Positions 59,160 through 62,997 of a DNA stretch of 64,000 nucleotides are shown piece after piece. Every line of letters begins with the position of its first letter. Positions within the stretch are counted from its first letter, which is position 1. The position numbers were made by a program, and so were the translations under genes. This DNA comes from Escherichia phage ECO07P1, in the sequence record OP172784; one strand, written 5' to 3'. The notes under the pieces are model-generated. The model was not told where the DNA came from. It did not search any database and worked only from the letters and a program-made list of their open reading frames with translations.

Positions 59160-59171
59160 TTTCACAAAGTT

Positions 59172-59210: not shown

Positions 59211-59237
59211 AAAACAAATGAGTGATTGGAGAATAAA

Positions 59238-59510
59238 ATGAAAACATTTAAAGAATTTATCAATGAAGCTGCTTTTAACGAAAAAGTAAAAATTAGCAAA
59301 GCTGTCAAGACTATGATTGATAACATCAATTACCTATATGGTATTGATTTAACTGACTATGTAACAGTTGGTAACAAACGTAACTATTTCGTGTTTGACA
59401 TCTCTGAACTTGACCAGAATCAAATTAACAACATTGAGCGTTTTGCTAATGATAAGGGTCTTCGTCATGAGTCAGCGGGTTATAAAAAATACGCAATTTA
59501 TTTAAAATGA
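59238..59510 (+). CDS. internal-protein-like small protein with N-terminal capsid targeting sequence
   Basis: Starts MKTFKEFINE|AA.., matching the T4 IP capsid-targeting sequence/gp21 cleavage context (MKTYQEFIAE|A recalled); preceded by early promoter cassette and RBS GGAGAATAAAATG. Confidence 0.6.
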   Translation: MKTFKEFINEAAFNEKVKISKAVKTMIDNINYLYGIDLTDYVTVGNKRNYFVFDISELDQNQINNIERFANDKGLRHESAGYKKYAIYLK

Positions 59511-59545
59511 GTTTACTTTTAAATAGGGTTGTGGTACTATTATCT
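59511..59545 (+). promoter_or_regulatory. early promoter cassette upstream of second IP-like gene
   Basis: GTTTAC 59511-59516, TGg-TACTAT extended -10. Confidence 0.55.
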
Positions 59546-59570
59546 CATCAAAATTAATTAGGAAAATAAA

Positions 59571-59879
59571 ATGAAAACATTTAAAGAATTTATCAATGAA
59601 GCGGCTGCACCAAAGACATTCATTATTTATACTCAAGCGGGTCTTGATGATGAGTATGCGGAAGCAATTCTGAGGTCACTTGCTAAGAACGGTGTTGAAG
59701 TAATTGCTTCGGACTTTAAGAAAGGGGCTTCCGAGATGTTTATTTCTATAACTAAAGGATCTAAAGCTAAAATCAAATCATCATTCGGTGTTGCTCGTAC
59801 CGATCAAATCGACAATCATGACTTTAAACAAACTGGTGCTAAACGACAGAATACAATTGCATCACGCGGAATAAAATAG
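59571..59879 (+). CDS. internal-protein-like small protein with capsid targeting sequence
   Basis: Starts MKTFKEFINE|AAAPK..; own early promoter cassette. Confidence 0.6.
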   Translation: MKTFKEFINEAAAPKTFIIYTQAGLDDEYAEAILRSLAKNGVEVIASDFKKGASEMFISITKGSKAKIKSSFGVARTDQIDNHDFKQTGAKRQNTIASRGIK

Positions 59880-59891
59880 TTTATAAAAACC

Positions 59892-59930
59892 GTTTACTTT
59901 TAGATAGGGTAGTGATACTATTACCCTATC
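59892..59930 (+). promoter_or_regulatory. early promoter cassette with flanking inverted repeat (promoter-early-stem-loop-like)
   Basis: GTTTAC 59892-59897; arms GATAGGGTA and TACCCTATC flank the -10 GTGATACTAT. Confidence 0.6.
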
Positions 59931-59949
59931 AACTACTGAGGAGAATAAA

Positions 59950-60174
59950 ATGAAAACATGTAAAAAATTTATTGTAGAAGCTAAAAGACACGAAGACGAA
60001 CTGCCTTTTGTTTCAAAAACCTTTGATGGAACATTGGCTGATTTTAAAAAAATTCCTAATGATAAACTTGCTAAATTGGTTGGTTCTATTAGTGAAAAAG
60101 ATGGCAAGGTCACATTTTCTGCTCAAGGCGTTGCCAATCTCAAGAAACTTTTGAAAGCCGCTGGTGTTGAATAA
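59950..60174 (+). CDS. internal-protein-like small protein with degenerate capsid targeting sequence
   Basis: Starts MKTCKKFIVE|AK..; own early promoter cassette and RBS GAGGAGAATAAAATG. Confidence 0.5.
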   Translation: MKTCKKFIVEAKRHEDELPFVSKTFDGTLADFKKIPNDKLAKLVGSISEKDGKVTFSAQGVANLKKLLKAAGVE

Positions 60175-60177
60175 ATT

Positions 60178-60216
60178 GTTTACATAGGGTTTTAGTTGTG
60201 ATACTATTACCCTATC
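60178..60216 (+). promoter_or_regulatory. early promoter cassette with flanking inverted repeat
   Basis: GTTTAC 60178-60183; arms ATAGGGT and ACCCTAT; identical leader ACCCTATCAACTACTGAGGAGAATAAAATG as at 59920-59952. Confidence 0.6.
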
Positions 60217-60235
60217 AACTACTGAGGAGAATAAA

Positions 60236-60418
60236 ATGAAACGTTGTGAATTAATTCGAAATGTTGCTATTGCAATTTCTGCTTCTGCTTTTAGTTTTTC
60301 AATGTTTGTTGGATTTATATGCGGATTATTGACTACAGCAGAAAATGTTTTTTCACTTGTAGTAGCATTTTTAATTGGTTTAATTGCTATCGTTATGGAT
60401 AAAATTTCTAAAGGTTAA
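60236..60418 (+). CDS. small membrane protein (two predicted hydrophobic helices)
   Basis: 60 aa; hydrophobic stretches AIAISASAFSFSMFVGFICGLL and VFSLVVAFLIGLIAIV; own early promoter cassette. Confidence 0.45.
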   Translation: MKRCELIRNVAIAISASAFSFSMFVGFICGLLTTAENVFSLVVAFLIGLIAIVMDKISKG

Positions 60419-60420
60419 TA

Positions 60421-60708
60421 ATGATTCTTTATGCGAAAGTATCGTCCGTTGAAAATGGATATAAATATGATCAAGATGCGGCTAAAGCCTTGATTGATGA
60501 TTATGGCATTTTAACATGTTTTGAAGTTGAAAAGGTTTACATTGACCGTTCATCTTCTCAAGTTAAATTAGTAAAGGAAGACCGTAAATTTAATACAGTA
60601 AATTTTGATTTCTTTATTGAAACAGAAAAAGGTCCTCTTGAATATGATATTTTCAAGAATCCTTTGGGTCTTGAATGCATCGTAAACATGTATTATCATA
60701 AATGGTAA
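60421..60708 (+). CDS. hypothetical protein (95 aa)
   Basis: ORF start overlaps previous stop (TAATAATG). Confidence 0.45.
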   Translation: MILYAKVSSVENGYKYDQDAAKALIDDYGILTCFEVEKVYIDRSSSQVKLVKEDRKFNTVNFDFFIETEKGPLEYDIFKNPLGLECIVNMYYHKW

Positions 60709-60710
60709 AT

Positions 60711-60735
60711 ATGCTTTAAGAATTATTTGTTATTA
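60711..60735 (+). promoter_or_regulatory. MotA-dependent middle promoter upstream of tRNA cluster
   Basis: Same ATGCTTTAAGAATTATTTGTTATTATTAA block as at 1077-1107. Confidence 0.5.
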
Positions 60736-60805
60736 TTAACTCATATCACACTGATTAATACCCTCTATCATCAAGGGTTCTTGCTTGAGAGCCTTTGTTA
60801 ATAAT

Positions 60806-60878
60806 TGGGAATTAGCCAAGTTGGTAAGGCACTGGATTTTGATTCCAGGATGCAAAGGTTCGAGTCCTTTATTCCCAG
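60806..60878 (+). tRNA. tRNA-Gln (anticodon UUG)
   Basis: Hand-folded cloverleaf: acceptor TGGGAAT/ATTCCCA, anticodon stem CTGGA/TCCAG with loop TTTTGAT, T-arm AAAGG-TTCGAGT-CCTTT. Confidence 0.8.
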
Positions 60879-60879
60879 C

Positions 60880-60966
60880 GCGAGAATGGTCAAATTGGTA
60901 AAGGCACAGCACTTAAAATGCTGCGGAATGATTTCCTTGTGGGTTCGAGTCCCACTTCTCGCACCA
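60880..60966 (+). tRNA. tRNA-Leu (anticodon UAA), class II with long variable arm
   Basis: Acceptor GCGAGAA/TTCTCGC, anticodon loop CTTAAAA, long variable arm, T-loop TTCGAGT, 3' CCA encoded. Confidence 0.8.
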
Positions 60967-60971
60967 AATTT

Positions 60972-61045
<74 letters not shown>

Positions 61046-61055
61046 ATTTAATTTA

Positions 61056-61130
61056 CTCCGTGTAGCTCAGTTTGGTAGAGCGTCTGCTTTGGGAGCAGAA
61101 TGTCGCAGGTTCAAATCCTGCCGCGGAGAC
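61056..61130 (+). tRNA. tRNA-Pro (anticodon UGG)
   Basis: Acceptor CTCCGTG/CGCGGAG, anticodon stem TCTGC/GCAGA with loop TTTGGGA, T-loop TTCAAAT. Confidence 0.8.
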
Positions 61131-61131
61131 T

Positions 61132-61221
61132 GGAGGCGTGGCAGAGTGGTTTAATGCACCGGTCTTGAAAACCGGCAGTCGCTCCGGCGACTCATAGGTT
61201 CAAATCCTATCGCCTCCGCCA
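61132..61221 (+). tRNA. tRNA-Ser (anticodon UGA), class II
   Basis: Acceptor GGAGGCG/CGCCTCC, anticodon stem CCGGT/ACCGG with loop CTTGAAA, long variable arm, CCA encoded. Confidence 0.8.
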
Positions 61222-61226
61222 GTTTT

Positions 61227-61302
61227 GCTGATTTAGCTTAGTAGGTAGAGCAACTCACTTGTAATGAGAAGGTCGGCGGTTCGATTCCGTCAATCAGCAC
61301 CA
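61227..61302 (+). tRNA. tRNA-Thr (anticodon UGU)
   Basis: Acceptor GCTGATT/AATCAGC, anticodon loop CTTGTAA, T-loop TTCGATT, CCA encoded. Confidence 0.8.
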
Positions 61303-61303
61303 A

Positions 61304-61378
61304 GGCCCTGTAGCTGGAAGGTTCAAGCAAGCGACTCATAATCGCCAGATGGTGGTTCAATTCCACCCAGGGCCACCA
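61304..61378 (+). tRNA. tRNA with CAU anticodon (Ile via lysidine modification, or Met)
   Basis: Acceptor GGCCCTG/CAGGGCC, anticodon loop CTCATAA, T-loop TTCAATT, CCA encoded; the T4 equivalent is recalled as annotated Ile. Confidence 0.75.
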
Positions 61379-61391
61379 AATTAAGAATTAA

Positions 61392-61478
61392 GGGGAGTTA
61401 TCCCGTAGAGGTAGCGGTGTGGACTGTAAATCCATTGTCATTGCGACTCGGGTGGTTCGACTCCATCACTCCCCACCA
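61392..61478 (+). tRNA. tRNA-Tyr (anticodon GUA), class II
   Basis: Acceptor GGGGAGT/ACTCCCC, anticodon stem GTGGA/TCCAT with loop CTGTAAA, 15-nt variable arm as expected for bacterial-type tRNA-Tyr, T-loop TTCGACT, CCA encoded. Confidence 0.7.
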
Positions 61479-61482
61479 ATTT

Positions 61483-61557
61483 GGATGTGTAGCTCAATGG
61501 CAGAGCGATCGCCTGTTAAGCGATTGGTTATAGGTTCGAATCCTATCACGTCCGCCA
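61483..61557 (+). tRNA. tRNA-Asn (anticodon GUU)
   Basis: Acceptor GGATGTG/CACGTCC (one G-U), anticodon stem ATCGC/GCGAT with loop CTGTTAA, T-loop TTCGAAT, CCA encoded. Confidence 0.7.
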
Positions 61558-61561
61558 AATC

Positions 61562-61637
61562 CGAGGCATAGCTCAGAAGGAAGAGCAAGGACCTTCTAAG
61601 TCCTAGGTCGTAGGTTCGATCCCTACTGCCTCGACCA
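61562..61637 (+). tRNA. tRNA-Arg (anticodon UCU)
   Basis: Acceptor CGAGGCA/TGCCTCG, anticodon stem AGGAC/GTCCT with loop CTTCTAA, T-loop TTCGATC, CCA encoded. Confidence 0.8.
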
Positions 61638-61653: not shown

Positions 61654-62004
61654 ATGAAAGGTAATGTTTATTTAGTAGTTCATGATTTAACATTCTATTT
61701 TAATCATAATGACACTGTTATTTCTGAACGCGTAATTAATTTGCTTTATCAGCACGCAGATTATGTTTATGTCGAAAACGAATACGGTCATTGGCAATTT
61801 CTCAAAAATCGTTCATTTGGTTTAGATGGTTACGAATACTTTGAACGTAAAGACCTTTTAGATAAAATTCCATTATCTACACAATATCAAAATCACAAGT
61901 CTTTACATAAATGCCGTCCAATTCGAAATGTTGAATCTGCGTATGAAGCAATTGATTTGTGGCGTAAACGCCGTGAACAGATTGATGCTTTAAAAGAATA
62001 TTAA
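61654..62004 (+). CDS. hypothetical protein (116 aa)
   Basis: ORF with RBS GAGGAAAATATG directly after tRNA-Arg. Confidence 0.45.
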   Translation: MKGNVYLVVHDLTFYFNHNDTVISERVINLLYQHADYVYVENEYGHWQFLKNRSFGLDGYEYFERKDLLDKIPLSTQYQNHKSLHKCRPIRNVESAYEAIDLWRKRREQIDALKEY

Positions 62005-62345
62005 GAAACCGGGTCGCTACCGGTAAGTCGTCGGACTGATGTTCCCTGGGTAAGGACTGGCATTAACAAATCTTTACGATTTGTTAATGTCCCCTTACAT
62101 CACAGCAGAAACGGCGCACCGAATTATCGATTCGAGGAAATATCTTTGCCGTAAGCCGAGTAGCGTTTTTGACGGAACGTTCGGATATGGTCGAGATATG
62201 GCCTTTTAAAAATATTAAGTAGCGTCAACTGCTTAATAACCGGGTTCGAATCCCGGCGTTTCGTACAAACACTTGCCTTAGCAGGTGGAACCCCGACAAG
62301 GTTGCCGCAAGGCTTAGCCCCGACCGAAAGGTTGGGGCTTTTTAG
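62005..62345 (+). ncRNA. putative structured stable RNA(s) / tRNA-like element, ending in an intrinsic terminator
   Basis: No ORF of 60 aa or more; perfect 11-bp hairpin ATTAACAAATC-TTTAC-GATTTGTTAAT (about 62057-62083); tRNA-like T-arm CCGGG-TTCGAAT-CCCGG with possible acceptor pairing CGGAACG/CGTTTCG; terminator AGCCCCGACC-GAAA-GGTTGGGGCT-TTTTT at 62316-62345. Confidence 0.3.
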
Positions 62346-62433
62346 TTTGAATCACTCGGATAACGCTGTTACGGATAATAACAAAGTAATAAATAATTAA
62401 TAACCAACCGATAGATTATTTCAAGGATTTTAA

Positions 62434-62997
62434 ATGAAAACTTATGCCGAATTTTTAACCGAAGCAGCAAAATTACCATCTGAAGCAGAACTTACTAAAG
62501 TATTCTTCCAATTGGACCCAAAAGACCGTGGCGATTTTCTTAAGTGGAAAGCTAAAGCTATTGAAATGTATAACATTGATAATAGTTCTTTTACGATGAG
62601 TCAAGAAAATAAATTCAATAAAGCATTTTTCAAAATTTCTAAGAAACTGGCATCTGGCGCTCAGGTTCCTAAATCTGCCTTAGCTACTCCTGAACGTGCG
62701 CCTGTTAAAATTTCTAAGAATATGTTCGACACTAAAAAATACGTTAATGCTTTGAATAAAGCTCTTGATGCATTGGATGATGCAAAGAAGGCAGCCCGTG
62801 ATCTTCAAGACGTGTACATCGATTTTGATCGTAAAACTAAAGGTTCTATTTCAAATAGCGAACGCAATAGTGTAAGCGTTTATTCTGATAGCCTTGACGT
62901 TCTTGGCGATGCGTATACTGAAATTAAAAATCGTATTAACACCGCATCTAAACTAAAAGCTGCCGCAGAAGCTATAATAGCTAAACTAGATAAATAA
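62434..62997 (+). CDS. internal-protein-like protein with capsid targeting sequence (IPIII-sized)
   Basis: 187 aa starting MKTYAEFLTE|AAK.., very close to the recalled T4 IP capsid-targeting sequence; followed by terminator 63005-63030. Confidence 0.6.
   Translation: MKTYAEFLTEAAKLPSEAELTKVFFQLDPKDRGDFLKWKAKAIEMYNIDNSSFTMSQENKFNKAFFKISKKLASGAQVPKSALATPERAPVKISKNMFDTKKYVNALNKALDALDDAKKAARDLQDVYIDFDRKTKGSISNSERNSVSVYSDSLDVLGDAYTEIKNRINTASKLKAAAEAIIAKLDK

Follow-up and report, generated by a model that had tools for sequence, protein, structure and literature searches.

What function may be attributed to a protein of 60 amino acids (aa) that consists almost entirely of two hydrophobic segments, lies next to the internal-protein (Ip) cassettes of a T-even phage and is kept by nearly all enteric relatives of that phage? 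The question is raised by an open reading frame (ORF) of Escherichia phage ECO07P1 (sequence record OP172784), of which a stretch of 64,000 nucleotides (nt), here called the window, was analyzed; positions refer to the window unless another record is named. Judged by its sequence, the ORF is the ortholog of trna.4 of phage T4, in the 60-aa form shared with phage T2. The gene, the predicted membrane nature of its product and its early expression have all been catalogued previously, so that this is a known gene and nothing new as a find. Concerning its role, the explanation that best covers the evidence overall, to which we assign a probability of about 0.6, is that early trna.4 of the T4/T2 type encodes an inner-membrane hairpin that would act by binding and would have a conditional, accessory role.

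Results

Identity of the reading frame

The product of the window gene, MKRCELIRNVAIAISASAFSFSMFVGFICGLLTTAENVFSLVVAFLIGLIAIVMDKISKG (translation of 60 codons), is 100% identical across 60 residues to Trna.4 of T4 (UniProt P13322, annotated as "conserved hypothetical predicted membrane protein"), which is encoded at 73329-73514 of NC_000866.4 (product NP_049748.1). It matches PHROG 1692, a family of unknown function, over residues 1-60 of a 61-position profile (E = 2.6e-34), and the precomputed family PF26870.1 is assigned to all database homologs of Trna.4. The exact 60-aa form is recorded under 'putative membrane protein [Escherichia phage T2]', and the 61-aa form of T4 under 'Uncharacterized 6.6 kDa protein in segB-ipI intergenic region'. 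A tblastn search found Trna.4 in 978 of 50,697 phage records, with 100% identity over 60 residues in T4, T2, AR1 (where the copy is annotated 'trna.4') and hundreds of other Tequatrovirus genomes. A first-pass annotation, made from the letters of the window, had described a 60-aa ORF with two hydrophobic segments at this place, and the terminal strings that it quoted, MKRCELIR and MDKISKG, are exact. In the ORF map of the window, no other-frame or antisense ORF of at least 30 aa overlaps trna.4, and no Rfam family overlaps it either. With a grand average of hydropathy (GRAVY, Kyte-Doolittle scale) of 1.30, the product ranks at the top of the 104 ATG-started ORFs of 50-90 aa present in the six frames of the whole window.

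Two peculiarities of the databases were noticed in these searches. Proteins of 136 aa corresponding to Trna.3 share a 90% cluster with Trna.4, one of them as the cluster representative, which is a clustering artifact. In addition, protein P0040 is a copy of Trna.4 where Val, Phe, Leu, Ile, Cys or Trp stand in place of numerous Ala, Ser, Thr and Arg residues; this is the pattern of a pervasive C-to-T change and probably an artifact of converted or damaged reads.

Conservation and selection

At least eight genera of Tevenvirinae retain the gene with a length of 59-61 codons, among them Tequatro-, Mosig-, Gapriver-, Kanagawa-, Jiaoda-, Gelderland- and Karamvirus, always in the same order on one strand: gp3, gp1, 57A, 57B, the Ip gene or genes, trna.4, (trna.3, trna.2) and the transfer RNA (tRNA) genes. 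Pairwise Nei-Gojobori ratios of non-synonymous to synonymous change (dN/dS), taken from pairs with unsaturated dS, lie between 0.12 and 0.45. Residues M1, K2, R3, E5, L6, I7, R8, N9, E36, L41, A44, F45, L46, G48, I50, M54 and K56 are invariant in 19 aligned sequences; the wider family retains MKRxExIRN, the loop glutamate and (F/Y)(V/I)MD(K/Q)I, and its length and hydrophobic pattern persist at identities as low as 37%. Within the invariant N-terminal codons synonymous variation is found (CGT/CGC, TGT/TGC, TTA/CTG/CTT, CGA/CGT/AGA and AAT/AAC), which indicates a constraint on the protein and not on an RNA or DNA element. A nucleic-acid reason for the invariant N-terminus, namely the palindrome at 60240-60265, was considered and rejected because synonymous sites vary there. 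By these comparisons, trna.4 is a real protein-coding gene under purifying selection, and the conservation of the frame in relatives, on which the first-pass annotation had made its proposal depend, is borne out.

In the genus of T4, trna.4 is found at an identity of at least 95% in 505 records and gp1, at the same threshold, in 500, matching counts from which trna.4 appears to be essentially fixed despite bordering the hyperplastic ip locus. The hosts of the phages carrying it belong to Escherichia, Shigella, Klebsiella, Enterobacter, Salmonella, Yersinia, Serratia, Citrobacter and Raoultella. Homologs of gp1, a dNMP kinase, occur in 1418 records, including T4-like phages of Aeromonas, Acinetobacter and Proteus, and these three groups of phages are absent among the tblastn matches of trna.4.

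A further small ORF, of 59-65 aa, overlaps the trna.4 stop codon by 14 nt in Jiaoda-, Gelderland- and Karamvirus (L007 2667-2846; L008 2673-2858; L009 2667-2864). Its product, with one transmembrane (TM) segment, is polar in the N-terminal half and hydrophobic in the C-terminal half, which ends in a basic tail; by its arrangement it would make up with Trna.4 a pair of small membrane proteins linked by translational coupling. A tblastn search with the Jiaodavirus copy found it in Klebsiella-type phages only, and not in T4-like coliphages, T4 or the window; as it is confined to the former, an obligatory partnership with Trna.4 was rejected.

Predicted membrane hairpin

Two hydrophobic stretches, of about residues 10-32 and 38-54, are parted by the polar turn TTAEN. 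The AlphaFold2 model, built from an input alignment of 19 sequences, consists of a helix (residues 2-28), a loop (29-34) and a second helix (35-59), with a mean predicted local distance difference test (pLDDT) score of 74. Approximate insertion energies, calculated with central-position values of a biological hydrophobicity scale, range across the genera from -0.3 to -3.6 for the second segment (TM2) and from -0.6 to +1.8 for the first (TM1); TM2 is clearly insertable in every genus, and TM1 is rich in Ala, Ser and Gly. Lys and Arg residues number 2-3 in the N-terminus, 0 in the loop and 1-2 in the C-terminus, a distribution that, by the positive-inside rule, predicts a hairpin with both ends in the cytoplasm (N-in/C-in), a periplasmic loop of 5 residues and the conserved ends facing the cytoplasm. 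We infer that Trna.4 is probably a helical hairpin of the host inner membrane in this orientation, in keeping with the two-helix membrane protein predicted by the first-pass annotation. A signal peptide or lipoprotein was also considered and rejected: neither the 'ASA' at residues 16-18 nor Cys29 is conserved, E5, R8 and N9 lie in the segment ahead of them, and there is no lipobox.

Searches for remote relatives placed the protein in a family of its own. Against 1.84 billion representative proteins, a profile search returned only 12 clusters, all of 52-80 aa and all belonging to the Trna.4 family. At E ≤ 1, Pfam (in a copy without PF26870) gave only sub-threshold matches to DUF7554, DUF2721 and NLRC4_HD2, and NCBIfam contained no relatives of Trna.4. 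A sequence profile search of the PDB gave nothing below E = 0.35, and a Foldseek comparison of the AlphaFold2 model with the PDB nothing below E = 6, the top hits being generic two-helix membrane subunits (ATP synthase c, PsbZ) that are uninformative. Full-text literature searches for trna.4, P13322, PHROG 1692 or PF26870 found no functional study.

Early promoter cassette

The promoter upstream of trna.4 combines a -35 element, GTTTACA at 60178-60184, with a TG-extended -10 element, TGATACTAT at 60199-60207. Seven occurrences of the pattern GTTTAC-N14-16-TGNTANNAT were counted in the window, where 0.05 would be expected; all are on the plus strand, and four lie in the cluster of Ip genes and trna.4. 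Within this cluster the promoter cassette recurs as four direct-repeat copies, at 59167, 59506, 59887 and 60173, with one ORF per copy; moreover, a 32-nt leader, CCCTATCAACTACTGAGGAGAATAAAATGAAA, is repeated exactly at 59924-59955 and 60210-60241, in front of the third Ip cassette and of trna.4, respectively. The promoter upstream of trna.4 in T4 is nearly identical to that of the window, and most of the other genera examined have a recognizable one of like type; that of Mosigvirus is degenerate. This conserved early consensus, together with the early class of the trna.4 RNA in a time-resolved transcriptome of T4 (PMC9697503), strongly supports that a strong early promoter would drive transcription of trna.4 of the window in the first minutes after infection, the expression data being those of T4. 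The early promoter cassette ascribed to the gene by the first-pass annotation is thus upheld, and the early class of the T4 RNA agrees with it independently.

A stem-loop that crosses the -10 region folds at -14.2 kcal/mol (z = -3.46) and can be formed in three of the four cassette copies, that of trna.4 included; it would arise solely in transcripts that read through from upstream. This layout of promoter, stem-loop and Shine-Dalgarno sequence, shared by trna.4 and each Ip gene, is that of the promoter early stem-loop (PeSL) cassettes of T4-type phages, in which a strong promoter is combined with a stem having terminator or attenuator activity against upstream read-through (Arbiol et al. 2010, PMC2839356). 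Variable ORFans are the usual cargo of such cassettes, whereas trna.4 is fixed and near-universal at the edge of the variable ip locus.

The likeness to the Ip cassettes extends into the coding sequence. The first 46 nt of the trna.4 segment, comprising the Shine-Dalgarno sequence and about 11 codons, are 67% identical to the Ip cassettes (repeat family D1, with copies at 59228-59273, 59561-59606, 59940-59985, 60226-60271 and 62424-62469), and the N-terminus of Trna.4, MKRCELIRNVA, loosely parallels the capsid-targeting motif of Ip proteins, MKTFKEFINEA. The (L/I)xE protease site is missing from Trna.4. This resemblance may be left over from recombination within PeSL cassettes, or it may be fortuitous.

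Expression and fitness data from T4

Published screens of T4 have included trna.4. Its knock-down by CRISPRi-ART gave a value of 0.57 (p = 0.106) and the class 'Not Fit' (PMC11879866 supplement). In the HIDEN-SEQ transposon study (10.1101/2025.11.20.689424 and its supplement), 16 of the 17 TA sites in trna.4 were struck and the gene was classed as 'Non-essential'; in the two conditional comparisons considered here it was not significant, an independent library giving a log2 fold change of +2.74 (p = 0.21, adjusted 1.0) and the comparison with RexAB one of -1.32 (p = 0.62, adjusted 1.0). The HIDEN-SEQ text does not name trna.4 among the hits for RnlAB, CBASS, DarTG1/2, Mokosh, Septu, M9 medium or clinical isolates. 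Insertion counts for trna.4 vary between the libraries of that study (249 to 1671; 548 to 220), though not significantly so; with 16-17 TA sites, such swings suggest one or two jackpot insertions and little power of the screen for so short a gene. Published screens have shown that trna.4 is dispensable in laboratory E. coli.

Absence of trna.3 and the T2-type layout

The T4 and window loci share the promoter cassette, the leader and the position of trna.4 between the ip locus on one side and trna.2 with the tRNA genes on the other, and they differ in two respects: Trna.4 of T4 has one residue more, a terminal Glu that the 60-aa form lacks, and trna.3, which encodes 136 aa in T4, is precisely absent from the window, where the stop codon of trna.4 stands at the deletion junction. 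The junction reads AAAGGT followed by TAATAATG in the window and AGAGGT followed by TGATGATG at the end of T4 trna.3 (60410-60425 of the window compared with 2675-2690 and 3085-3105 of L001). Since trna.4 and trna.3 both end in '(K/R)-G-stop', a short-homology deletion is suggested, which may have removed trna.3 and trimmed Trna.4 by its terminal Glu. The same arrangement without trna.3 is present in Salmonella phage F13076 and in UFV-AREG1. No segB is found in the tRNA region of the window, and an ORF of 116 aa follows the tRNA genes at 61654-62004. The arrangement matches the tRNA region described for T2L (PMC2330249), and by this region the phage of the window is classified as T2-type, not T4-type.

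Neighboring genes

The features of the locus are collected in Table 1. The three Ip ORFs match PHROGs families of internal head or virion proteins (E 2e-23 to 4e-54), and each has an N-terminus of the capsid-targeting type, MKT(F/C)K.F, and its own copy of the promoter cassette; the first-pass annotation had rightly placed trna.4 next to cassettes for injected proteins. At 59235-60174 the window has a tandem array of three distinct Ip-type cassettes, as against ipI alone in T4.

Table 1. Positions of trna.4, its signals and its neighbors in the window
Feature	Position	Strand	Basis or details
trna.4 coding sequence	60236-60418	+	ATG at 60236, TAA at 60416-60418; 60 aa
T4-type early (sigma-70) promoter	60178-60207	+	promoter scan; pattern count; conserved in T4
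Cassette stem-loop, PeSL-like	60184-60215	+	arms 60184-60190 / 60209-60215
Shine-Dalgarno sequence GAGGAG	60224-60229	+	6 nt before the trna.4 ATG
Predicted TM1, about residues 10-32	60263-60331	+	hydropathy
Predicted TM2, residues 38-54	60347-60397	+	hydropathy
Three Ip cassettes	59235-59510, 59571-59879, 59950-60174	+	PHROGs; repeat families D1-D3
trna.2 ortholog, 95 aa	60421-60708	+	PHROG 2023, E = 7e-48; T4 annotation
10 tRNA genes (Gln, Leu, Gly, Pro, Ser, Thr, Met, Tyr, Asn, Arg)	60806-61637	+	ARAGORN, Rfam

Downstream, the ATG of trna.2 lies 2 nt past the trna.4 stop, a spacing that puts trna.2 in the early transcription unit of trna.4; in T4 it is the start of trna.3 that directly follows this stop. 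That trna.4 is the first cistron of an early unit running into trna.2 is strongly supported. No terminator-like site was predicted between trna.4 and the tRNA cluster, the first on the plus strand being at 62316-62339, beyond the tRNA genes. Between trna.2 and tRNA-Gln, at 60710-60736, TATGCTTTA is followed by a 12-nt spacer and TATTAT, which is a match, at the level of the pattern only, to the layout of a MotA-box middle promoter. It fits the reported transcription of the T4 tRNA genes mainly from a middle promoter immediately before them (PMC2330249).

Discussion

Based on the conservation pattern and the predicted topology, we hypothesize that the early transcript of trna.4 gives rise to a small hairpin with a marginal TM1 rich in Ala, Ser and Gly, a strongly hydrophobic TM2 and a loop of 5 residues carrying the invariant Glu, whose cytoplasmic ends, MKRxExIRN and F-V-M-D-K-I-S-K, would form a contact face. 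Trna.4 may then self-associate or bind a conserved inner-membrane partner, of the host or of the phage, and change the activity of that partner. Selection on the cytoplasmic ends and on small-residue packing positions, in a protein too small for catalysis, makes it most likely that it acts by binding, and a gene that is dispensable in laboratory E. coli yet kept in nature points to a role that is conditional.

Several observations weigh against this proposal. Trna.4 (P13322, by name) went undetected in the time-course proteome of T4 (PMC9697503), for which its small size and hydrophobicity could be the reason. Membrane insertion and topology are predictions from simple scales and from a model with a mean pLDDT of 74, and the hydrophobicity of TM1 is marginal. 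With regard to the transcript, its extension into the tRNA cluster is probable and is deduced from the absence of a predicted terminator; in T4, the main tRNA promoter is reported to be a middle promoter situated immediately before the cluster (PMC2330249).

The proteome result would also fit a non-functional protein, that is, a translated leader or spacer that carries the early promoter and stabilizes or couples trna.2 and the tRNA precursor. The tight coupling to the next gene (TAATAATG) and the lack of a predicted terminator before the tRNA genes are likewise in keeping with it. However, a dN/dS well below 1, motifs that are invariant despite synonymous change, and a length and hydrophobicity kept down to 37% identity are not those of a spacer, and this explanation is disfavored as highly improbable.

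Among the roles for a functional protein, superinfection exclusion or immunity would have the hairpin alter the inner membrane or a DNA-entry component and so block the DNA of later phages in the manner of Imm, a reading that we judge unlikely. It is favored by early expression, small size, two predicted TM spans and a conservation across T-even phages like that of imm, and also by the fact that most small envelope proteins of T4 of known function (Imm, Sp and RI) deal with superinfection. Imm of T4 resembles Trna.4 in being a small T-even membrane protein, made before the late functions and devoid of a catalytic domain; in contrast to Trna.4, it has 82-83 aa, is encoded between genes 42 and 43 and shows no similarity in sequence or profile. 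In fact, Trna.4 has no match to the family Imm_superinfect (PF14373) at E ≤ 1, where T4 Imm, used as a control, scores 7e-16, and an hhalign comparison of Trna.4 with T4 Imm gave a probability of 0.2%. Classical genetics (Vallee and Cornett; Lu and Henning) is said to have attributed nearly all T-even exclusion to imm and sp, which would leave little activity for Trna.4, and the pooled transposon and CRISPRi screens, for their part, do not measure exclusion. A counter-defense function, in which the hairpin would block a membrane-embedded effector (TM effectors of CBASS or Pycsar, or those of the Zorya, Kiwa, Rex or Pif type), appears rather unlikely, though it draws on the neighborhood: 57B, upstream, is Acb1, an anti-CBASS nuclease, IpI inhibits GmrSD, and another gene of the ip locus, in Bas37, inhibits McrBC (10.1101/2025.11.20.689424). 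Furthermore, Trna.2, the product of the adjacent gene, is one of just two T4 proteins enriched in a pull-down of DRT1, a defense reverse transcriptase (PMC13275509), and dispensability in K-12 with retention in nature is also in keeping with such a function. Nevertheless, the RexAB comparison was not significant, the gene goes unnamed among the defense-related and clinical-isolate hits in the HIDEN-SEQ text, and anti-defense genes are usually patchy, whereas trna.4 is near-universal and well conserved in sequence.

A third set of roles concerns the host cell, with Trna.4 modulating an inner-membrane function (transport, energy state, division or a protease) or regulating lysis timing in the manner of a holin or antiholin; this we consider possible, though less likely than not. 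Different genera preserve the architecture, the marginal TM1 included, the small-residue positions of TM1 and the invariant AFLxG of TM2 suggest helix packing or oligomerization, and confinement of the family to phages of Enterobacterales fits a host-specific target. Class II holins and pinholins such as S21-68 of phage 21 have about 60-70 aa, two TM segments in an N-in/C-in topology, a weak TM1 with small residues and a strong TM2, and in general terms the predicted architecture of Trna.4 resembles theirs. The resemblance does not extend further: no Pfam holin family matches Trna.4 at E ≤ 1, the T4 transcript is early and not late, the C-terminal tail is short, near-neutral and not strongly basic, and T4 already has the holin T. 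The genes t, e, rI and rIII explain the lysis of T4, which counts against a lysis-timing role, and loss of trna.4 has no lysis or fitness phenotype in the screens, including growth in lysogeny broth (LB).

The first-pass annotation had put the protein forward as a candidate exclusion or anti-defense factor. The proposal is plausible from the anti-defense neighborhood (57B/Acb1, IpI) and from near-universal retention, but it finds no direct support, as Trna.4 is not of the Imm family, is dispensable in the T4 screens, showed no significant effect with RexAB or in the independent library, and is not named among the anti-defense hits in the HIDEN-SEQ text. It is not favored over an equally plausible role in the host membrane or in lysis timing. 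As a rough prior split, which is not a result, we would give 30% to the neutralizing of a membrane-located defense or abortive infection (Abi) system, 20% to phage exclusion, 30% to the host membrane, 10% to lysis timing and 10% to other roles. A bolder version, in which Trna.4 is a near-universal early membrane effector in conflict that, through MKRxExIRN and FVMDKI, either disarms a membrane Abi or defense effector or provides a third layer of exclusion independent of Imm and Sp, is put forward tentatively, at somewhat less than even odds.

In essentially all enteric T-even phages, trna.4 holds a fixed place beside a highly variable anti-defense locus and is under purifying selection while being dispensable in the laboratory, and this combination of retention, selection and dispensability suggests that its role in nature is conditional. 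Were its function defined, Trna.4 would extend what is known of the manipulation or protection of the host inner membrane by T4-like phages in the first minutes of infection.

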